A DNA stretch of 64,000 bases from Candidatus Poribacteria bacterium (GTDB lineage Bacteria > Poribacteria > WGA-4E > PCPOR2b): NCBI GenBank assembly GCA_965116925.1, contig OZ220744.1:1184001-1248000 (forward strand). Direction: 5' to 3'. The number at the start of each line of letters is the position of its first letter. Within the stretch, counting starts at the first letter, position 1. Position numbers and translations under genes: made by a program. Positions 33,225 through 45,374 of the stretch are shown here, one piece after another. The notes under the pieces are model-generated. The model was not told where the DNA came from. It searched no databases and saw nothing but the letters and a program-made list of their open reading frames with translations.

Positions 33225-34079
33225 CTAAGATGCAGCACTCTCAATCGCTCGACGGGTGTAGATCTCCGCCAAGTTTTCGCGATACGCCTGACTGGCGTGA
33301 ATGTCTTCCAACGCAGTTATTCCGTCAGCCGCTCTCGCAGCAGCGGCAGCGATGTTATCAGCGGTCAGTGCCGATCCTGTTAGCGCGGACTCGACGCCCG
33401 ACGCCCGATATGGGGCATCCGAAACGCCGGTAATACCAACCGAAACGCTCTGACAGGTATCTCCAGATTTCGTTAAGACGACAGCCACGCCGGTGAGGGC
33501 AAATCCTGATGCGACTTGGTGCAGCTTCAGGTATGTCCCCTTGGTGTTAGCATCTGGAATGGACACATGGATTGCCGTAAGGATCTCATCATCCCCGAGG
33601 TCTGTCTCGTACAGCCCTTGGAAGAAATCGGTTGCTTTGACAGTCCGCTCGCCGTTGGACCCAGCGATCTGGAGATCCGCATCCAGCGCGAGAATCGTCG
33701 CGGGCCAATCAGCAGCCGGATCGGCGTGTGCAAGACTGCCGCCAATCGTGCCTTTGTTTCGCACCTGCACATCGCCAATTTCGGCAGCGGTCTGTGCAAG
33801 CAGCGGCACCTTCTGCTGGACCAGCTCTGAACTCTCCAATTCATGATGCGTCGTCAGCGCACCGATAACCAATTTTCCGTCAGACTCAGAGATCCCTTTC
33901 AAGCCGCCAATGCGTCCAATATCGATGATGACCGCAGGCTCAGCCAAGCGTAATTTCATTGTTGGGATCAGGCTATGCCCACCAGCGAGCACCTTCGCAT
34001 CGTCTCCATGTTCCTGCAAGAGCGATAACGCTTCATCAAGTGCTGTTGGTGCAAAGTATTCAAAACTTCCCGGAATCAT
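33225..34079 (-). CDS. coxM: molybdenum hydroxylase FAD subunit (CoxM-like)
   Basis: LAGGHSLIP, VRNKGTIGGS, HADPAAD. Confidence 0.88.
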   Translation of the reverse strand: MIPGSFEYFAPTALDEALSLLQEHGDDAKVLAGGHSLIPTMKLRLAEPAVIIDIGRIGGLKGISESDGKLVIGALTTHHELESSELVQQKVPLLAQTAAEIGDVQVRNKGTIGGSLAHADPAADWPATILALDADLQIAGSNGERTVKATDFFQGLYETDLGDDEILTAIHVSIPDANTKGTYLKLHQVASGFALTGVAVVLTKSGDTCQSVSVGITGVSDAPYRASGVESALTGSALTADNIAAAAARAADGITALEDIHASQAYRENLAEIYTRRAIESAAS

Positions 34080-34172
34080 TCGTTATTTCCTCCTTCCTTC
34101 ACTTGAGCATAACTTTCCATCCCCCTTTTTCCCTCCGTCAGCGGGGGGACAGAGGGGGGACAGAAAATTATA

Positions 34173-36509
34173 TTAACCCTTCGCATCTTGGATCGCCTGC
34201 CACACACGGTTCGGCGTCAGTGGCATCTCAATATCTTTCACCCCAAACGGCGATAAGGCGTCCACAACGGCGTTGACCATACACGGTGTTGAGCCGATTG
34301 TCCCGGCTTCCCCAACCCCTTTGACTCCCATCGGATTGACAGGTGAAGGAGTCACCGTATGATCTGTCTCAAAGTGGGGCACCTGTGTCGCCTTGGGAAC
34401 GGCATAGTCCATAAACGACCCGGTCAAAAGCTGACCGCTCTCATCGTAGACTGCGCCTTCGTACAGTGCCTGCCCTAAACCTTGTGCAATACCGCCATGT
34501 ACCTGTCCTGCAACGACTAAGGGGTTGATGATATTGCCGATATCGTCAACGCATACATATCGTTGAATATCGATCTCGCCGGTATCCGCATCAACCTCGA
34601 CCACTGCGATGTGGGCACCGAATGGATAGGTGAAGTTCGACGGTTCAAAGAAATGTGTTGCTTCGAGGCCAGGCGTCGTGTCGGGCGGCAGATTCTTGGC
34701 AACGTGTGCTTCGAGGGCAATCGCCGCGAAATCAATCGATTGATCCGGTGAACCCTCAACGAAAATCTGTCCGTCTCCAAAGACGAGATCATCGGGGTTC
34801 GCTTCCATCAGATGCGCTGCGAACGTTGCCATCTTCTCTTTCACCTGACCGGCAGCGATAACCATCGCGGTTCCACCGACAGCCGTCGCTCGACTACCAA
34901 ATGTGCCGATACCGTAAGGCTGCCTTCCAGTATCGCCATGGATAACTACAACATCGTCAATATCCACGCCAAACTCATCAGCAATCATCTGAGCGAAGGT
35001 GGTTTCTTGACCCTGACCGTGTGGTGAAACACCAGTCAACACCGTAATCTTTCCAGTCGGTTCGACCCGAACGGTGCTACTTTCCCAACCACCGGCGGGC
35101 ATCGCTATAGACGGTCCCATACCACAAATCTCAGCGTAGGTGGAGATACCAATTCCCATGTATCTGCCCTGCTCACGGAGCGCTGCCTGCTGCGCTCGCA
35201 AACCATCATAGTCAACAATTCCCAATGCCTTGTTAAAGCTTTCTTGGTAGTTGCCACTGTCGTAGATAATTCCGGTTGGGATTTCAAGTGGGAATTCCGT
35301 TGGCTGCGGGAAGTTTTTGAACCGAATATCTTTCGCATCCATTCCTACCGCCGACGCTGCCAGATCAACCATCCGCTCAATGATGTAGGTCGCTTCGGGA
35401 CGCCCCGCACCACGGTACGCATCCGTCGCCATCTTGTTCGTTAAAACGCCAATCAGTTCAATCTGGACATTCGGAATCTTGTAACAACCGACAATCATAA
35501 GATTTGTCAACGTGGGAATAAGCGGGGTGAGTAACTGATAGGAAGCTCCAAGATCGGCAAGAATCTTCGCACGAATCCCAGTGATTGTCCCATCATTGTT
35601 GACTGCGACATCCACATAGTTGACTTGGTCTCTACCATGGATTGTCGTCGTGAAGTTCTCAGTCCGCTTCTCCGTCCATTTCACCGGTTTGCGTAACTGT
35701 ATCGCCAAATATGAAACAACGACCTCTTCAGGGTAAACATTCAGTTTACTGCCGAAGCCTCCGCCAACTTCCGGGGCGATAACGCGCACTTTCTGTTCCG
35801 GCACGTTGACAATCAGAGACAACTGAGTTTTAAGGATGTGTGGAACCTGCGTTGATGACCAGACGGTGAGGGTGCCTTCGCCCGGTAGATATTCCGCTAA
35901 CACACCGCGCGTTTCCATCGCATTCGGAACTAAACGCTGATTGACGAAACGTTGGGATACGACATGATCTGCTGCTGCAAAAGCTGCATCGGCATCCCCT
36001 GCCTCTAGTGGCATTGCAAAACCGATATTGTCGCCGAAGTCATCGTAAATCAGCGGTGAATCTGCCTCGACCGCCTTATCAAGATCGGTAACAGCGGGCA
36101 GTTCTTCGTAATCAACTTCAATCAGGTCCAGTGCATCTCTGGCAATATACGCATCCGTTGCCACAACCGCAGCAACTGGCTCCCCAACGAATCGTACACG
36201 TCCCACCGCAAGTGCGGGGTGATCTGGAACCTTGAGGTCTGGAATCTCAGCGCCACAAGGGATGCCCCCAACGTCCCCTAAGTCTTCAGCGGTAATCACC
36301 GTGACGACGCCGGGCAATTCTTTTGCTGCTGATGTGTCGATGCTGTTAATAGCTGCGTGTGCGTAGTCGCTGCGCAGGAATGCGCAGTGAAGCGTGCCCA
36401 CCAGTTTAATGTCGTCGACATAATGGGATAACCCTTGGATTAGCCGCGGATCCTCGCGCCGCTTAATCGGGGCACCTATCATCCGAGTCGGTGCTGCTAT
36501 TGTCGCCAT
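34173..36509 (-). CDS. coxL: molybdenum hydroxylase large subunit, form II CoxL-like
   Basis: GGGFGSK, AYRGAGR active-site loop, GQGQET, KGVGEAG. Confidence 0.88.
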   Translation of the reverse strand: MATIAAPTRMIGAPIKRREDPRLIQGLSHYVDDIKLVGTLHCAFLRSDYAHAAINSIDTSAAKELPGVVTVITAEDLGDVGGIPCGAEIPDLKVPDHPALAVGRVRFVGEPVAAVVATDAYIARDALDLIEVDYEELPAVTDLDKAVEADSPLIYDDFGDNIGFAMPLEAGDADAAFAAADHVVSQRFVNQRLVPNAMETRGVLAEYLPGEGTLTVWSSTQVPHILKTQLSLIVNVPEQKVRVIAPEVGGGFGSKLNVYPEEVVVSYLAIQLRKPVKWTEKRTENFTTTIHGRDQVNYVDVAVNNDGTITGIRAKILADLGASYQLLTPLIPTLTNLMIVGCYKIPNVQIELIGVLTNKMATDAYRGAGRPEATYIIERMVDLAASAVGMDAKDIRFKNFPQPTEFPLEIPTGIIYDSGNYQESFNKALGIVDYDGLRAQQAALREQGRYMGIGISTYAEICGMGPSIAMPAGGWESSTVRVEPTGKITVLTGVSPHGQGQETTFAQMIADEFGVDIDDVVVIHGDTGRQPYGIGTFGSRATAVGGTAMVIAAGQVKEKMATFAAHLMEANPDDLVFGDGQIFVEGSPDQSIDFAAIALEAHVAKNLPPDTTPGLEATHFFEPSNFTYPFGAHIAVVEVDADTGEIDIQRYVCVDDIGNIINPLVVAGQVHGGIAQGLGQALYEGAVYDESGQLLTGSFMDYAVPKATQVPHFETDHTVTPSPVNPMGVKGVGEAGTIGSTPCMVNAVVDALSPFGVKDIEMPLTPNRVWQAIQDAKG

Positions 36510-36547
36510 AGTATAAGTCCTCCTATTTGCGTCCTGTCTCTCGCTTG

Positions 36548-37021
36548 TTAGCCCTGCATCTGCTCCGCAGCGTGTTGAACCGCCTCAACGATATGCTGAT
36601 AGCCAGTGCAGCGGCAGAGATTTCCTTCCAACCCGTGCCGAATCTCGTCTTCTGTTGGGTTGGAATTCCGCGAGAGCAACTGATGGGCAGCCATAATCAT
36701 ACCGGGTGTGCAGAAACCACACTGCAAACCGTGACGTTCCCAGAAACCCTCTTGGATGGGATGGAGATCTCCATTTTGCGCCAAGCCTTCGATGGTTGTT
36801 ATTTCCGCGCCATCCGCCTGAACTGCTAACATCGTACAAGATTTGACTGCTTGTCCGTTGACTGAGACCGTACAAGCACCACACAGGCTCGTTTCACAAC
36901 CAACGTGTGAACCGGTCAAACCAACGACATCTCGGATGTAGTGAACTAAAAGCAGCCGTGGTTCAACTTCGTGTGTGTGCGCCTCTCCATTGATTGTTGT
37001 ATGAATGACTTTCTTAGACAA
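36548..37021 (-). CDS. coxS: 2Fe-2S subunit (CoxS-like)
   Basis: [26 protein letters not shown]. Confidence 0.92.
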
Positions 37022-37318: not shown

Positions 37319-39601
37319 ATGGAAGAACTAGGATCACTTATCAGTCGGGCGCAATCCGGAGATCTGGACGCCTACGGTAGCATTGTTGAACAGTTCCAAG
37401 ACATGGCAGTGGGTTACGCCTACTCCATCTTAGGGGATTTCCATCTGGCTGAGGATGCCGTGCAAGAGGCGTTCATCGAAGCGTATCCGATTCTTTCAAG
37501 GGTCTACGGTCCCGTTGCTTTCCCGGGCTGGTTTCGGAGGATTATTGTCAAGCACTGCGATCGGTTGACACGCGGGAAGCGCGACGAACTTATGTCCCTA
37601 GAAACAATGGTTGAGATACCTTCGGGTAGAAGAGATCCAGCGGAGGAGCTTGAAGAACAGGAGACAAAATCCCTCGTGTTAGCCGCAGTTGACGCATTAC
37701 CGGAACACCAACGTCAGACCACAACGCTCTTCTATATCAGCGGTTTTTCACAAAAACAGATTGCGGACTTCCTAGAAGTGCCGGTGACAACCGTCGATAA
37801 CCGTCTCCGCGCCTCAAGGAAAAAGCTAAAAGCAACCTTACATTCTGAAAGGATGATTACCATGTTGAAAGATACACTGGGTGAAAACGCACCATCACGC
37901 GACGATTCGTTTGTCAATGCAGTTGGCATCTGCAATGCAGCGCAGGCGGGAGATCTGCAGCGGGTACAGGAGATTCTCGCTGTTAAGCCGGAGTTGGCAA
38001 CCCGAGATATTGCTTCAAATAATGAACATCAACCCATCCATCTTGCAGCGGAGGAAGGTCATGCCGAAATCGTGCACGTACTACTAGAAGCAGGAGCAGA
38101 CCCACTCAATGGGATATATCCTCACCGAGAAGCCACCAGTGCGCTGACAATGGCGAAAGACCGTGGACACACCTCCGTCGTTGAGGTCATTGAGACATGG
38201 CTCAACGAACAACGGGGGACGACGCCGAAAGGTGAAACCTTAACCCGTGCTGCATCGGACGGTGATATTGAGGGGGTCCGCTCACTGCTCAATGAGGATG
38301 GGGGACTTATCAATGCCACCGATCGAGGTGGAGAAACTGCGCTTTTCAAAGCGATTGATCGAGGCGATTTGTTGCTTGTCCTTGAGTTGCTAGATCGAGG
38401 TGCCGATGTTGATCATCGTGCCGCCGACGGAAGTCGTCCGATCCACCACTGCCTTGCACACAGTTGGAAGGTGCCAGACGAGATGTACAAAACCTACGCC
38501 ATCCTCGCGGGTGCCTTGCTTGCACGCGGTGCAGCCTATGATCTCTGGGTTGCCTGCGGCGTTGGCGATGCCGAAGGTGCGAAGCGGTTCATTGACGCTT
38601 GTGAGGATAAGACCCAGTTGTGCAAAAGCAGCGAACCGTTTTGGGGAGATAATGACAATCCGTTGGTCGTCGCTTGTTTTCAAGGACATACAGAAATTGT
38701 TCGATTGTTAATTGATGCCGGGGCGAATCCCGATTCGCCGTTTGAAATCGATGTTGCCGGTGAGCAGGTAAAACAGTGGGGACATCCGCTCTGGCTAGCA
38801 GCGAATCGTGGGCATTATAATGTTGTCAAGTTGCTTCTTGAGCGTGGAGCGAACCCAAACACAGCAGTCTATGCTTCCGGTAACGCTGTGTGCTGGGCTT
38901 ATCAATACGGACACAAGCGCATTGCGGATCTGATGTTCCAACACGGCGCTGTCGCCGATCTGTTGAGTTACTGTCTGACACATAATCTCCCTGCTATCGC
39001 GGAGATCTTGCAGCGGGATGCTTCAGAGCGCAAAGAATTACTGTGGAGCGCGATTCTAGCGGGTAATATCGATGTAGTCGAGATGGGACTGCGCGATAAC
39101 CCACAGTATGATGACGCAAAGTGGTTTAATCTATTGGAACAAACGGTACGAGGCTGGCGGTTAGGAGATCTGAAAATCAACAACGAGGGATTTGACCGGC
39201 GCAACTACATCACCAATCTGGGTAAATTGCTTGAGTATGGGGTAAATCCGAACCTCAGAAATCCACGCGATGAACGGTTCAATTTCACAATTCTGCATCA
39301 CTTGGCTGGCAGGAGTTGTAATTCTAGAACTTATGGACATACAGCGGAAGAGGTCGTTGAGTTTGCTCGTATGTTGCTCAAACACGGTGCTGACATCAAT
39401 GCGATGGAAGACAAGCTAAAATCAACCCCACTCGGTTGGGCTGCGCGATTTGGTCAGAAAAAATTAGCAGAATTTCTGCTTGACAACGGCGCAGACCCAA
39501 ATCTGGCGGGGGCACCGTGGGCGACCCCGCTCGCCTGGGCGGAGAAAAAGGGACATTCGGAAATCGCTGAAATCCTCCGAGAACACGGTGCAGCAGGGTA
39601 G
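37319..39601 (+). CDS. ECF sigma factor fused to ankyrin repeats
   Basis: LAEDAVQEAF, FPGWFRRI, IADFLEVPVTTVDNRLRASRKKL; then many ankyrin motifs (PIHLAAEEGH, TPLGWAARFG, TPLAWAEKKGH). Confidence 0.9.
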   Translation: MEELGSLISRAQSGDLDAYGSIVEQFQDMAVGYAYSILGDFHLAEDAVQEAFIEAYPILSRVYGPVAFPGWFRRIIVKHCDRLTRGKRDELMSLETMVEIPSGRRDPAEELEEQETKSLVLAAVDALPEHQRQTTTLFYISGFSQKQIADFLEVPVTTVDNRLRASRKKLKATLHSERMITMLKDTLGENAPSRDDSFVNAVGICNAAQAGDLQRVQEILAVKPELATRDIASNNEHQPIHLAAEEGHAEIVHVLLEAGADPLNGIYPHREATSALTMAKDRGHTSVVEVIETWLNEQRGTTPKGETLTRAASDGDIEGVRSLLNEDGGLINATDRGGETALFKAIDRGDLLLVLELLDRGADVDHRAADGSRPIHHCLAHSWKVPDEMYKTYAILAGALLARGAAYDLWVACGVGDAEGAKRFIDACEDKTQLCKSSEPFWGDNDNPLVVACFQGHTEIVRLLIDAGANPDSPFEIDVAGEQVKQWGHPLWLAANRGHYNVVKLLLERGANPNTAVYASGNAVCWAYQYGHKRIADLMFQHGAVADLLSYCLTHNLPAIAEILQRDASERKELLWSAILAGNIDVVEMGLRDNPQYDDAKWFNLLEQTVRGWRLGDLKINNEGFDRRNYITNLGKLLEYGVNPNLRNPRDERFNFTILHHLAGRSCNSRTYGHTAEEVVEFARMLLKHGADINAMEDKLKSTPLGWAARFGQKKLAEFLLDNGADPNLAGAPWATPLAWAEKKGHSEIAEILREHGAAG

Positions 39602-39622
39602 CACACTCTCAATCTTGGGATA

Positions 39623-39803
39623 TATAGTAAACACGAGAAATAAGGATACATTTACCAATAACTCCGGACTGCGCGAAGTTCCAAAAGTCCCCCTGACAAC
39701 GGTTTCCCCCCTGATAAGGGGGGCTAGGGGGGTTAGGGAGTTGGGGGATTTAGGGGGTTGGCTGTGTATTAAGAATGTCTCATTAATTCTAACATCTACT
39801 ATA
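39623..39803. mobile_element. MITE-like element family B, copy 3 (different cargo)
   Basis: TATAGTAAAC...TGTCTCATTAATTCTAACATCTACTATA; interior CCCCCCTGATAAGGGGGG-type repeat. Confidence 0.65.
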
Positions 39804-39810
39804 AAATACG

Positions 39811-39840
39811 AAAGCCGACCTATCATGGGTCGGCTTTTTT
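39811..39840 (+). terminator. intrinsic terminator
   Basis: AAAGCCGACC-tatcatg-GGTCGGCTTTTTT. Confidence 0.8.
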
Positions 39841-39994
39841 CTTAGTTATCAGTTTCTTGGAGACGGGTGTAACTTCAATGGGCCGGACTTCACCAGAACA
39901 AACCAAAAACAAAAAATCTCGTCTCAGTGCAAAAAAAATGCTAAAAAAATCTCGGAACTGTGTCTTAATAAGTGCAAGGGAGGAATCGAGAGCC

Positions 39995-41416
39995 ATGGCT
40001 AAGGACAACACCCTCATCTATCGCGCCCAAACTGGGGATGAAGAGGCTTTTGCTGCCCTGATGCGGGAGCATTACCCTTTCGTCTATGCAATTGTTATAA
40101 GAATCGTGAAAAATTCCCATGACGCCGAAGAAGTGGTGCAAGACAGCTTCCTCAACGCCTATCGGGGGTTGGCACAGCTTGAGGATGCGACCAAATTCAA
40201 AAGCTGGTTGGGGGAGATAGCACAAAATTGTGGGCGAAACTGGCTGAGAAAACAACGGGGCGATACCGTATCCATCGATGAAGTAAGCGAAGAAATACTT
40301 CAAACCCAAGATTCACCTGATGAGCGATTAACACGCTTGGAACAGAGAGAGTTGATTCGCCGGACGATGGAAATGCTTCCGGAGAAAGACAGGGAAATTG
40401 CCCATGCCTATTATCTGGAAGGTGCAAGCTACGATGAACTGACAAGCACGCACGGGCTATCATACAGCGCAATTGCATCTAGGCTGTCACGCGCGAAGCG
40501 GCAACTCACCGAACGATTGCAATATCTTCTGACTGGCATCTTCGTTTCCCCTGCGATGATACTAAAAAAAATCTATTCGGGAGGGCTAACTGTCATGAAA
40601 GTTGGAACGGTTCCTAAAATAACGGTGGGAGTAGCAGTGCTAATCACACTCATTTTTATCGGTTTTATCGGTGTCCGCCAGATGAATATGTCCACAGTCG
40701 AGGAGCGTGTATATTTGACGCCGTGGGAAGATGGCACTGAACGCCCACAAAACAACGCCGAAGACTTGGCTGCACAAACTGATTCGGCTCAAGATACAGG
40801 ATTCCGAGACAATCAGTCGCAAAACTCTGCCACAGAAATCGAACCGAACGAAGATTTCTTGGGTCCATCTGAAGAAACAGATACAGCGCAATTCACGACA
40901 GACGCAGAATTTGAGATAGAGGCAGATCAGGACCTCTTTACCGGGATTTCTGCATTATTAGATGACGAAGGTCGGTCTGCTGAAGACGTGATGAACGCTT
41001 ACCTAGAGGCGTATAGGAATGTGGACGCTGACGCAATGCGTTCGTTACTGACAGGATCTGCCAAAGAAGGGTTTGAAAATGGAATGATGCACCGCTGGAA
41101 TGGAAATGCGGAGTTACCACAAGATCTTGTAGATTTTGTTTATCGTTTGGTGCCAGAGGAGGACGTGGAGGTGGCGGCTGAAATTCTTCAGCAGGTGAAG
41201 GGGAACATGCTACCAAGTCTTAAACAGAGGAATGCTCAAACAGAGATTGCGAGCAGCGAGCATGTTGGTGATGAATTCCATTTTCGGATAAGAATACCAG
41301 TGCCGAAGATGCGGGAGATACCGGGAGTAGAAGTGCCGAAACTACCGGACTCAGTCACTCCAATTCGTAAGATGCGAAAAGAAAATGGGTTGTGGCGGAT
41401 TTATTATTCGCAATAG
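39995..41416 (+). CDS. ECF sigma factor with TM helix and extracytoplasmic C-terminal domain, copy 1
   Basis: DAEEVVQDSF, FKSWL, SRLSRAKRQL; TM ITVGVAVLITLIFIGFIGV; C-terminal ..KENGLWRIY; SD GGGAGG before ATG 39995. Confidence 0.88.
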   Translation: MAKDNTLIYRAQTGDEEAFAALMREHYPFVYAIVIRIVKNSHDAEEVVQDSFLNAYRGLAQLEDATKFKSWLGEIAQNCGRNWLRKQRGDTVSIDEVSEEILQTQDSPDERLTRLEQRELIRRTMEMLPEKDREIAHAYYLEGASYDELTSTHGLSYSAIASRLSRAKRQLTERLQYLLTGIFVSPAMILKKIYSGGLTVMKVGTVPKITVGVAVLITLIFIGFIGVRQMNMSTVEERVYLTPWEDGTERPQNNAEDLAAQTDSAQDTGFRDNQSQNSATEIEPNEDFLGPSEETDTAQFTTDAEFEIEADQDLFTGISALLDDEGRSAEDVMNAYLEAYRNVDADAMRSLLTGSAKEGFENGMMHRWNGNAELPQDLVDFVYRLVPEEDVEVAAEILQQVKGNMLPSLKQRNAQTEIASSEHVGDEFHFRIRIPVPKMREIPGVEVPKLPDSVTPIRKMRKENGLWRIYYSQ

Positions 41417-41456
41417 TAATTCAACCAACTTTTAACTCTATTCCGCAAGACCTCAT

Positions 41457-41488
41457 AAGGCGAATGGTTCAATCCATTCGCCTTTTTT
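41457..41488 (+). terminator. intrinsic terminator
   Basis: AAGGCGAATGG-ttcaat-CCATTCGCCTTTTTT. Confidence 0.85.
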
Positions 41489-41520
41489 ATTTATCGAGCG
41501 TGAAAAATCTGTTATCCTAA

Positions 41521-41743
41521 CGCAAGTTGCTAGTGATGTACGGCGCGGTAAAATTGATCCGTATACCCATAGATCGGGCATCTTGCTCGACTTACAAAGC
41601 CCCAGAGGGGCGATATGTGTATAGAACATAGATAAACCAACTCTCCCAAGCCCCAGAGGGGCGACATGTGTGTCGTAAATTTGGTTATTTCTGATAGGTG
41701 TCAGGCATGAAAACTCGACCTATAGGTTGTCTAGCAACTTGCG
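41521..41743. mobile_element. MITE family C, 223 bp, 13-bp perfect TIR, 9-bp target duplication
   Basis: TTATCCTAA|CGCAAGTTGCTAG...CTAGCAACTTGCG|TTATCCTAA; empty site in the paralogous spacer at 43366-43374. Confidence 0.9.
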
Positions 41744-41862
41744 TTATCCTAAGAATCCTTTAATCCTGTAAATCCGTATTTTGACAGTTAAATCTCCCAA
41801 AAAAGTGCTAAAATAAATATCAGAACTGTGTCTTAATAAGTGTAAGGGAGGAACCGAGAGCC

Positions 41863-43269
41863 ATGGCTAAGAACAACACCCTCATCTATCGCGCCCAAAC
41901 TGGGGATGAAGAGGCTTTTGCTGCCCTGATGCGGGAGCATTACTCTTTCGTTTATGCGATTGTTATAAGAATCGTGAAAAATTCCCATGACGCCGAAGAA
42001 GTAGTCCAAGACACCTTCCTCAACGCCTATCGTGGATTGACACAGCTTGAGGATACAACCAAATTCAGAAGCTGGTTGGGGGAGATTGCACAAAATTGTG
42101 GGCGAAATTGGCTCCGCAAACAGAGGGACGATACCGTATCCATCGATGAAGTGAGCGAAAATCTTCTTCAAGCGCAAGACTCACCTGATGAGCGGTTAAC
42201 ACAACTGGAACAGAGAGAGCTGATTCGCCGTATCATAGAGACGCTTCCGCAGAAAGATAGAGAGATTGCCCATGCCTACTATCTGGAAGGTGCGAGTTAT
42301 GACGAGCTGACGAGTACACACGGACTGTCATACAACGCCATTGCGTTTCGGCTGTCACGTGCGAAGCAGCAACTCACCAAACGGTTGCGATACCTTCTGA
42401 CCGGCATCTTCGTTTCTCCGGCGATGACACTTAAAAAAATGTATTCAGGAGGGCTAACTGTCATGAAAATTGGAACAGTTCCTAAAATAACGGTTGGAGT
42501 TGCAGCACTGATTGCGCTCATTTTCATCGGCTTCGTCGGCGTCCGCCAGATGAACGCACCCACAATTGAGGAGCGGGTGTATTTGTCGCCGTGGGAAGAT
42601 GGCACTCCACGCCCACAAAACAACTCCGAAGACTTAGCTACCCAAACTGATTTTGCTCAAAATACAGAATTCCGAGACAATCAGTCACAAAATTCTGCCG
42701 CAGAGATCGAACCGAACAAAGATTTCTTGGGGCAATCTGAAGAAATGGATGTGTCACAATTCACGACAGACGCAGAATCTGACATAGAAACGGATCCGGA
42801 CCTCTTTACCGACATATCTATGCTGTTAGATAACGAAGGTCAGCTCGCTGAAGATGTGATGAATGCTTACGTGGAAGCGGTAAGAAGTTTTGACGGTGAA
42901 AGAATACGCCCATTAATGACGGGGGCTGCCAAGGAAAAGTTTGAGAGTCAGATGGTGCCTGCGTTAAAGGGGGAGCTCTCAGAAGAGTATATAAATACAT
43001 TTTATAGCGTAGCTCTTGATATGTCACCAGAGATGGCGGATGAGATGGTAGATTATCTAATTCAGACGGTACAGCCGGAAATGCTACCGCTACTTAAGCA
43101 GATGTTTGGTTCGGCAGCGGTTGCGAGTAGTGAATATGTCGGCGATGAACTCCACTTCCGAATAAGAATGTGGGATCCGCCGGGAACAGAAATGCCGGGA
43201 ATACCACCGGGCCCACCTCATAAAATTCGGAAGGAAAATGGGGTCTGGCGGATCTATGATTCGCCATAA
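41863..43269 (+). CDS. ECF sigma factor with TM and extracytoplasmic domain, copy 2
   Basis: Colinear paralog of 39995-41416. Confidence 0.88.
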   Translation: MAKNNTLIYRAQTGDEEAFAALMREHYSFVYAIVIRIVKNSHDAEEVVQDTFLNAYRGLTQLEDTTKFRSWLGEIAQNCGRNWLRKQRDDTVSIDEVSENLLQAQDSPDERLTQLEQRELIRRIIETLPQKDREIAHAYYLEGASYDELTSTHGLSYNAIAFRLSRAKQQLTKRLRYLLTGIFVSPAMTLKKMYSGGLTVMKIGTVPKITVGVAALIALIFIGFVGVRQMNAPTIEERVYLSPWEDGTPRPQNNSEDLATQTDFAQNTEFRDNQSQNSAAEIEPNKDFLGQSEEMDVSQFTTDAESDIETDPDLFTDISMLLDNEGQLAEDVMNAYVEAVRSFDGERIRPLMTGAAKEKFESQMVPALKGELSEEYINTFYSVALDMSPEMADEMVDYLIQTVQPEMLPLLKQMFGSAAVASSEYVGDELHFRIRMWDPPGTEMPGIPPGPPHKIRKENGVWRIYDSP

Positions 43270-43310
43270 TAACTAGACCAATTTTTAGCACTATCTCGCA
43301 TGACTTCACG

Positions 43311-43342
43311 AGGCGAATGGTTTGAACCATTCGCCTTTTTTT
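43311..43342 (+). terminator. intrinsic terminator
   Basis: AGGCGAATGGTT-tg-AACCATTCGCCTTTTTTT. Confidence 0.85.
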
Positions 43343-43485
43343 ATTTGTCGAGCACGAAAAATCTGTTATCCTAAGAATCCTTTAATCCTGTAAAAATTCC
43401 GATTCAAACAGTTAAATCCCAAAAAAGTGCTAAAAAAAATTGCAGAGCGGCGTTAATAATAAAATGCAAGGGAGGATAACGAGCC

Positions 43486-44916
43486 ATGGCTAGCGACGAT
43501 ACACTCATTAATCGCGCCCAATCTGGGGACGAAGGTGCATTTGTTGATCTGGTACGGGTATATTACCCCTTTGTCTATGCGATTGTTATTAGAATTGTGA
43601 ACGATCCACACGACGCCGAGGAGATCGTGCAAGACACCTTTCTCAACGCCTATCGCGGTTTGGCGGAGTATCAGGAGATGGCAAAGTTCAAAAATTGGTT
43701 GGGGGAGATTGCGCGAAATCGCGCACGAAGCTGGCTGAGAAAACAGCGGATCGATACCGTTCCGATTGATGAAGTGAACGAACACATCCTTGGGACACAA
43801 GATTTGCCAGACGAACAGTTGGTGCGCCATGAACAAAGGGAACTGATTCGCCGTGCAATGGAGACGCTCTCGGAAAAAGATAGGGAGATTGCCCGCGCGT
43901 ATTACCTTGATGGCGCAAGCTACGACGAACTAATCAGTACGCACGGTCTGTCATACAACGCCATTGCATTTCGCCTCTCTCGTGCCAAACGGCAACTCAC
44001 CAAACGGTTGCGATATCTCCTGACTGGCATCTTCGTTTCCCCTGCGATGACACTTAAAAAAATCTATTCAGGAGGCCTAACTGTCATGAAAGTTGGAACG
44101 GTGTCCAAGATAACGATCGGCGCAGCAGTATTAATTGCACTGATTTTTATCGGTTTCATCGGTGTCCGCTATATGAGTGCGCCCACAGTCGAGGAGCGTG
44201 TATATTTATCGCCATGGGAGGACGGCACTGAACGCCCTCAAAACAACTCCGAAGACTTGGCTGCCCAAACTAATTCGCCCCAAAATACGGAAAGCCGGGA
44301 CAATCTGTCACAGAGTTCCACAGAGGGATCGGAACTGATTGACGATTCCTTGGGGCAACCTGAAGAAACGAATACAGCACAGTTCGCAGCAGATGCAGAA
44401 TCTGATATCGAAACGGACTCGGATCTGTTTGCCGACATATCTGCGTTGTTAGACGACGAGGGTCAGCTTGCTGAAGATGTGATGAACGCTTACGTAGAAG
44501 CATTAAGGGGGCTTGACGTTGAAGGAATACTCTCAGTAGTGGCAGGGGCTGCAAAGGAAGAGTTTGAGAGTGAAATGTTGCCTTTCTTAAAGGGGGAGTT
44601 GCCACAAGATCTTATAGATACATATTATAGCGTGGCTCGTGATATTGTGCCCCCAGAGAAACTGGATGAGATGGCAGATGAGTGGATCCAGGCAATGAAA
44701 GGGGCAATGCTACCGGTACTTAAACAGATGCTTGGTTCGGCAGAGATCGTAAGCAGTGAGTATGTCGGCGACGAACTCCACTTCCAAGTAAGAATATCGT
44801 CACCGGAGATACCGGGTGCATCGGATTTCGGGATACCAGAGATGTCGAAAATGCCGGACCAACTTAATAAAATTCGCAAAGAAAATGGGGTGTGGCAGAT
44901 TTATAATTCGCAATAG
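43486..44916 (+). CDS. ECF sigma factor with TM and extracytoplasmic domain, copy 3
   Basis: Colinear paralog with a more diverged sigma domain. Confidence 0.88.
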   Translation: MASDDTLINRAQSGDEGAFVDLVRVYYPFVYAIVIRIVNDPHDAEEIVQDTFLNAYRGLAEYQEMAKFKNWLGEIARNRARSWLRKQRIDTVPIDEVNEHILGTQDLPDEQLVRHEQRELIRRAMETLSEKDREIARAYYLDGASYDELISTHGLSYNAIAFRLSRAKRQLTKRLRYLLTGIFVSPAMTLKKIYSGGLTVMKVGTVSKITIGAAVLIALIFIGFIGVRYMSAPTVEERVYLSPWEDGTERPQNNSEDLAAQTNSPQNTESRDNLSQSSTEGSELIDDSLGQPEETNTAQFAADAESDIETDSDLFADISALLDDEGQLAEDVMNAYVEALRGLDVEGILSVVAGAAKEEFESEMLPFLKGELPQDLIDTYYSVARDIVPPEKLDEMADEWIQAMKGAMLPVLKQMLGSAEIVSSEYVGDELHFQVRISSPEIPGASDFGIPEMSKMPDQLNKIRKENGVWQIYNSQ

Positions 44917-45008: not shown

Positions 45009-45374
45009 ATGAAATTCCAACAAATTGGTGCACTTTTCTGTGCTGTTTTGATTATCTCTGGGTGTGCTTCAAGCACCTCCCACGATTTTTTTACAAACCG
45101 GTACTCCCTTGACACCGAGGAGTTTGACCGCGGCTATAAAGCGGGTATTGCCTTCGCGAAAACGGAGGGACCTTTTAGCTCCTCACCAAAGGATGTGCCA
45201 TCTGCGATGCAAAAGATAATCGAAACCGAGTCGGATTCGTATCAAAAAGGGTTCTTCGCAGGCTATCGCGATCGAAAAGTTAGAAATCAGCAGTTGAACG
45301 GTGTTGTTTTCTGGAGTTCATGGGCGGTTATCATGACCGGTCTCATTCTAAGCGACGATCTACGCGAAGAATAG
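45009..45374 (+). CDS. small putative lipoprotein
   Basis: SD AAAGGAG, MKFQQ..VLIISG-C lipobox, C-terminal hydrophobic helix. Confidence 0.65.
   Translation: MKFQQIGALFCAVLIISGCASSTSHDFFTNRYSLDTEEFDRGYKAGIAFAKTEGPFSSSPKDVPSAMQKIIETESDSYQKGFFAGYRDRKVRNQQLNGVVFWSSWAVIMTGLILSDDLREE

Follow-up and report, generated by a model that had tools for sequence, protein, structure and literature searches.

Does a gene that joins an extracytoplasmic function (ECF) sigma factor to a sensor module encode one protein or two? The question is raised by an array of four such genes at positions 37,319 to 44,916 of the window, i.e. the 64,000-nucleotide stretch of a Candidatus Poribacteria genome (contig OZ220744.1, positions 1,184,001 to 1,248,000) analysed here. 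In each of the four genes a Shine-Dalgarno (SD) sequence and an in-frame ATG follow sigma region 4; a preliminary description of this DNA had pointed out these sites, and we find all four where it placed them (Table 1), within intact reading frames. Judged from sequence comparison, we estimate a probability of roughly 70% that the conserved SD and start codon at the junction are a second translation start, which yields a sigma-less module beside the full fusion. That the internal start is used at all appears slightly more probable still, whereas a regulatory effect of the short form on the long form is a tentative proposal, to which we give somewhat less than even odds.

The first gene joins the sigma domain to ankyrin repeats; genes 2-4 share the order sigma domain, 25-residue linker, membrane helix, acidic disordered stalk and C-terminal domain. 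Each thus contains what is expected of a gene within a gene, namely an SD and an in-frame start codon at a domain boundary. In gene 1 the AAAGGA motif precedes the ATG by 8 nt, as described before; its pairing energy is weak (-5.7 kcal/mol), yet similar to that of the gene's own 5' start (-5.2). The internal SD sequences of genes 2-4 reach -10.3 to -10.8 kcal/mol, similar to their own 5' starts (-11.2 to -11.5). Among the 14,807 deep internal ATGs of the genome, only 129 (0.87%) are preceded by GGAGG at a spacer of 5-12 nt, which speaks against a chance occurrence. The junction of gene 2 is spanned without differences by a contig from DNA run X1. The three membrane paralogs are kin, and therefore the real test of the site lies across homologs.

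To collect junctions of the membrane family, we used a protein motif located past the site; this motif fixes neither the start codon nor the SD, and it misses WD40-type copies carrying the same block. The sample comprises 129 distinct junctions from several genera and families within one order, 127 of them with a full sigma frame and 126 aligned. Two loci with a broken sigma part and an intact downstream frame (L174 and L193), perhaps errors or pseudogenes, were kept out of the counts, and gene-caller proteins of 262-294 residues which begin at the junction methionine were kept out of the evidence, their DNA context being unseen. The conservation of the glycine codons and of the methionine, proposed in the preliminary description as a check, is borne out: The codon at the internal start is ATG in 122 of the 127 junctions, GTG in four and ATA in one, and the first glycine, which forms the SD, is encoded by GGA in 99 of 104 cases. 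On the tree, parsimony assigns five changes to the third base of this codon versus 25-38 at eight other glycine sites; the third base of the second glycine, dispensable for GGAGG, changed 27 times. The serine preceding the first glycine is TCA or TCG in 95 of 96 cases, and where the first glycine is replaced, the codon is mostly AGA or GAA, so that purines are kept. The third bases of the neighbouring codons -4, -2 and +4 vary freely; on this evidence, individual bases are constrained rather than the block as a whole being frozen. Taken at the level of codons, these comparisons show that the site is conserved beyond the need of the protein, in the way expected of an in-frame internal start.

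The ankyrin family contributes evidence of a different kind. Its SD-forming arginine is AGG in 18 of 18 genes, two of them distant homologs from one other genus and one other family, versus a genome-wide use of this codon of 7.3%. The eight proteins compared, of 30-91% identity, all have Met182, and ankyrin orthologs with ATT at the site carry a TTG next to it. In four genomes of another genus the ankyrin gene has no sigma part, and its start, at the corresponding position, is a TTG or GTG preceded by AAGGGG; in these four orthologs the motif directly after the start has decayed. At the same locus, L156 has lost the sigma part together with its ATG and has kept the junction site and an intact frame of 579 codons. 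Therefore, the ankyrin module can be a gene of its own, starting at the junction site.

The site also recurs outside these two families. Of the 21 long ECF fusions in this genome, 20 contain an SD-like tract followed, at most about 30 codons past the sigma domain, by an in-frame ATG or GTG; the remaining one has ATA. Among 257 fusions, which fall into 19 junction clusters, 174 reach -8 kcal/mol, versus 59 of 600 background windows. (Seven loci from outside the Poribacteria, L161-L167, were omitted from this count and from the de-replicated ones, L168 from this count.) A fresh sample of fusions gave a strong SD-led start in 20 of 37 cases versus 29 of 310 in the background. After de-replication at 45% identity, such a start is found at 32 of 56 junctions and in two of 51 control windows, and the actual junction beats synonymous recodings of the same protein in 43 of 54 cases (controls: 21 of 46); at 35%, an SD-led start is present in 23 of 38. 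The SD is spelled by many different amino-acid pairs across the fusions, and in an Armatimonadia genome two of the three fusions examined have the site. In a related family from two genomes, AGGAG occurs in 31 of the 42 copies that keep the start codon and in none of the 12 that do not; as these copies are kin, p-values for this contrast are overstated.

Several observations weigh against an internal start. The 10-nt spacer of genes 2-4 is rather long, being found at only 36 of 551 candidate 5' starts of the genome. The four GTG codons stem from few lineages, one paralog in the same genome reads ATA at the site, and the WD40-type copy L040 has lost SD and start together. In the ankyrin family, four of 27 arginine columns are invariant among nine close orthologs, so that AGG alone is weak evidence there. 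Across fusions, the recoding test weakens at 35% de-replication (26 of 38, p = 0.017), and 24 of the 56 de-replicated fusions lie below the SD threshold, i.e. the site is not universal. The start codon has been lost in 12 of 54 copies of the related family, four of which have another SD and ATG further on, and one fusion of a sigma domain to the core protein PurC (G004) has no internal start. The split homologs that the preliminary description suggested looking for exist for the ankyrin type; no clean sigma-less gene of the membrane type was found in 29 genomes searched. Finally, the third bases of Gly +3 (four changes) and Val -17 (three changes) are as frozen as the SD base, which initiation alone leaves unexplained.

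These frozen bases would fit an SD-like tract that is an mRNA element, acting on elongating ribosomes or forming part of an RNA structure, without any useful second protein. SD-type sequences can pause elongating ribosomes, and in one version of this explanation a pause lets the sigma domain fold before the membrane helix emerges. The third bases of Val -17 and Gly +3 could form a T-A pair in 113 of 126 junctions, within a potential pairing of 5-6 bp, and the long spacer likewise speaks for this explanation. However, no consensus RNA structure was found around the junction, and the alignment contains no compensatory change for this pair. Moreover, substitutions at the site almost exclusively exchange one start codon for another, the related family loses the SD along with the start codon, the sigma-less ankyrin orthologs begin at the site, and soluble fusions without a membrane helix carry it too. 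We therefore consider an mRNA element improbable. (In gene 2, Val -17 is GTT at 40544-40546 and Gly +3 is GGA at 40604-40606; genes 3 and 4 have the same codons.)

Less probable still is the alternative already raised in the preliminary description, that the sites are fossils of fused sigma/anti-sigma operons in which the old start of the second gene is legible and unused. Where sigma and anti-sigma genes form an ordinary pair, the start of the second mostly lies 10-25 codons past the same anchor, and some extensions arose through ancient fusion according to the portion of PMC8999054 consulted. A fossil start is nevertheless difficult to reconcile with an SD base that stayed unchanged while the other synonymous sites of the family changed many times, with sites that were lost and then regained at new places, and with the exchange among start codons, the joint loss and the sigma-less orthologs described above; nor was a split ancestor found in the 29 genomes. 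A fusion origin may well be compatible with a site that is still in use. On these sequence grounds, we consider a start still in use much likelier than a fossil one.

The block might also be kept at the DNA level, for recombination or conversion that swaps sensor modules, its likeness to a start site being incidental. The same sigma-linker-SD-ATG block is indeed joined to NTF2-like, WD40, PurC and other modules, and the linker is 92-96% identical among the three membrane paralogs of the array versus 47-62% for their C-termini. This explanation is very improbable in view of the free variation at the third bases of codons -4, -2 and +4, of breakpoints to PurC which vary from case to case, and of unrelated blocks of different sequence which all end in SD and start. 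Equally improbable is a constraint on the protein only, a Gly-Gly hinge and a methionine needed for folding or cleavage: Met182 does lie within a conserved helix-like segment of the ankyrin type, but the constraint on codons extends to places where the protein has none, and the glycine is replaced by arginine or glutamate with purine-rich codons, so that the synonymous tests already largely refute it.

If ribosomes initiate at the junction, each gene would yield a module without sigma. The long form of genes 2-4 would be a membrane-tethered sigma factor, probably freed by proteolysis as in IutY, and the short form a sigma-less sensor anchored with its N-terminus inside, bearing an acidic stalk and an outer domain of predicted NTF2-like fold. 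The preliminary description had proposed an anti-sigma isoform. For genes 2-4 this part of its two-product model does not hold, because the short form has only about eight cytoplasmic residues before the membrane helix; it lacks the cytoplasmic four-helix domain that precedes the membrane helix in class I anti-sigma factors and is not one of them. The other part, two products per gene, is supported by the synonymous constraint, the start-codon exchange, the joint loss and the sigma-less orthologs. Most likely, the short form of genes 2-4 would co-assemble with the long form or compete with it for ligand or protease; as a partner or decoy it could set the firing threshold without binding sigma. 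Only the ankyrin short form keeps a potential contact to sigma: It would be a soluble protein retaining the helix after sigma region 4, which could act on sigma in trans or work independently. The segment after Met182 presumably resembles helix 4 of the anti-sigma domain of class I (ASDI), a likeness we noted by eye.

Comparison with known systems was based on portions of PMC7826278, PMC8999054, PMC7406223, PMC13515050, 10.1101/520783 and 10.1101/2023.05.02.539157. The closest are IutY of Pseudomonas putida (ECF243) and the predicted fused groups ECF48, ECF52 and ECF53, which likewise combine an ECF sigma factor, a membrane helix and an outer domain in one polypeptide without a separate anti-sigma factor (PMC8999054, in the portion consulted). 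A membrane helix after sigma is found in genes 2-4 only; unlike these groups, the array genes have no zinc-finger anti-sigma domain, and proteolysis is proposed here by analogy. The term "start codon" is absent from the main text of PMC8999054, as is an internal start. ECF57, ECF41 and ECF42 also have a sigma domain with a long C-terminal extension, which in ECF57 includes membrane helices; ECF57, compared with the array by description, is given as 100% Planctomycetes, and the words Poribacteria and ankyrin do not occur in the main text or in the part of the supplement consulted (PMC7826278). In class I anti-sigma factors, helix 4 binds sigma region 2 (PMC7406223, as far as consulted); helices 1-3 are missing here, and the short form of genes 2-4 has no cytoplasmic domain. 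With respect to the start itself, arcB of Escherichia coli, with its internal start for ArcB-C (10.1101/520783), and rpn, whose product RpnS blocks RpnL (10.1101/2023.05.02.539157), are similar in that a separate C-terminal module arises from an in-frame, SD-led start placed at a domain boundary, to judge from the parts of these reports consulted. Both of these, a sensor kinase and a nuclease toxin, are backed by protein evidence, whereas here a sigma factor forms the N-terminal part, the case is known from sequence, and the site recurs in many unrelated fusion families. Thus, fused ECF factors and in-frame internal starts have each been described already; their combination, which the preliminary description did not recognise as known either, is new as far as we could find, no internal start in an ECF fusion having turned up in a literature search that covered few subscription papers.

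The array lies in a closed genome of 6.47 Mb as four intact head-to-tail genes, whose coordinates are collected in Table 1. For gene 2, the SD-led ATG was taken as the start, while the open reading frame (ORF) tool runs further, to TTG 39857. Sigma regions 2 and 4 (PF04542 and PF08281) score above the Pfam cut-off in all four proteins, and Pfam finds ankyrin repeats in gene 1, where the two sigma regions occupy residues 22-170; the short linker and the absence of region 3 are those of ECF factors. TIGR02937 is above cut-off for the array proteins in the NCBIfam search, with no subfamily or equivalog model above cut-off among the matches listed. The closest named relatives of gene 1 are from Candidatus Poribacteria (71-95% identity). 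The anchor-like peptide noted earlier after the ATG of genes 2-4 corresponds to a predicted hydrophobic helix at residues 209-227, and gene 1 has none. For the short form of gene 3, a structure model has a predicted local distance difference test (pLDDT) score mostly above 90 over residues 131-268, and Foldseek matches of the C-terminal domain model to NTF2-like folds are weak (best E-value 6.7e-3, none at 0.001). A single-sequence model of gene 3 was poor (pLDDT 39), matches in the ESM Atlas were all below 0.9, and a sequence search of the PDB gave a best E-value of 0.037. Two metagenome scans returned nothing.

Table 1. Features of the four-gene array, in window coordinates
Feature	Position	Strand	Remark
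Gene 1, ECF sigma and ankyrin repeats, 760 aa, without membrane helix	37319..39601	+	
Gene 1 internal SD AAAGGA, ATG 37862 (Met182), adjacent in-frame TTG 37865	37848..37867	+	
Terminator-like stem after gene 1	39810..39838	+	consensus scan only
Upstream motif and 5' SD of gene 2	39919..39994	+	promoter-like by inference
Gene 2, ECF sigma, linker, membrane helix, acidic stretch, C-terminal domain, 473 aa	39995..41416	+	
Gene 2 internal SD GGAGG at 40580, 10-nt spacer, ATG 40595 (Met201)	40580..40597	+	
Gene 2 predicted membrane helix, residues 209-227	40619..40675	+	
Terminator-like stem after gene 2	41457..41484	+	consensus scan only
Upstream motif and 5' SD of gene 3	41792..41862	+	common to membrane-type genes
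Gene 3, layout as gene 2, 468 aa	41863..43269	+	
Gene 3 internal SD GGAGG at 42448, 10-nt spacer, ATG 42463 (Met201)	42448..42465	+	
Gene 3 predicted membrane helix	42487..42543	+	
Gene 3 C-terminal domain, predicted NTF2-like fold, likely outside cytoplasm	42847..43260	+	weak structural matches
Terminator-like stem after gene 3	43310..43337	+	consensus scan only
Upstream motif and 5' SD of gene 4	43413..43485	+	common to membrane-type genes
Gene 4, layout as gene 2, 476 aa	43486..44916	+	
Gene 4 internal SD GGAGG at 44071, 10-nt spacer, ATG 44086 (Met201)	44071..44088	+	
Gene 4 predicted membrane helix	44110..44166	+	

In line with the preliminary description, the array contains no separate anti-sigma gene, and no anti-sigma Pfam family was found among 56 members of the membrane family; a long in-frame extension without an adjoining anti-sigma gene is what characterises one-component ECF factors. 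Genes 2-4 are likely separate transcription units, because terminator-like stems follow genes 1-3 and a common motif precedes genes 2-4. This motif, of which no copy was found inside the genes, is a candidate promoter of the membrane-type family; a scan for sigma-70 promoters gave results near chance (15 found, 11.4 expected). The motif is common to all membrane-type sigma genes of the genome and to neighbouring genes for TolB-like secreted proteins (5.63-5.66 Mb of the same genome). Directly after gene 4 lies an ORF of 121 residues (45009-45374) with a lipoprotein-like N-terminus and a hydrophobic C-terminus, which has no Pfam or NCBIfam family match. A syntenic array, differing in content, is present in each of the four relatives examined and is flanked there by genes (33225-37021, minus strand, in the window) which we take, from motifs, to be a coxMLS-like molybdenum hydroxylase. 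Contig depth over the intergenic regions 39600-39840 and 41424-41830 is very high in three of the four DNA runs, and both regions are likely multi-copy repeats. Joints observed in the contigs of these runs connect paralogs or repeats. Remnants of the membrane family occur elsewhere in the genome (2619750-2620040 and 359610-360170); they are a broken sigma start that retains its upstream motif and precedes a TolC-like gene, and an isolated C-terminal domain.

The sigma-linker-SD-ATG block probably also serves as a socket behind which modules are exchanged. Besides the modules named above, those found behind other blocks are ankyrin, LRR, Kelch, HEAT, DnaN, FtsZ or the core of a class II tRNA synthetase. 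Where sigma is fused to copies or fragments of core proteins, as in L054 and L260 (DnaN-like), L266 (FtsZ plus PHP) and L254 (class II tRNA-synthetase core), an SD-led start is present at every junction. This genome contains a sigma-PurC fusion (L221, 6346739-6348283) with a second PurC copy in frame, and long PurC frames were found in 11 of the 29 genomes searched, in 10 of them beside the native purC. The 10 sigma-PurC fusions examined use four different blocks and differing breakpoints, and the native start of PurC is gone; in nine, the internal start is kept and the breakpoint lies downstream of it. In five of the 10, the fused PurC is sister to the native copy of the same genome. That Poribacteria and other phyla use a general one-gene, two-protein mode of ECF signalling, with a socket that captures PurC, DnaN, FtsZ and a PheS-like core, we regard as rather unlikely. 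If it were true, the free copy of a module would pair with the fusion and tune it, and the state of core proteins would be wired to transcription.

An ECF factor with a C-terminal extension is currently regarded as one protein. Use of the internal start would mean that about half or more of such genes in the phylum have a second, hidden product, and that the balance between long and short form is a control point which is absent from current models of ECF regulation. The fusions also offer many natural internal starts backed by sequence comparison. They bear on how fused ECF factors without an anti-sigma factor are held off and tuned, a question that silent mutations make testable.

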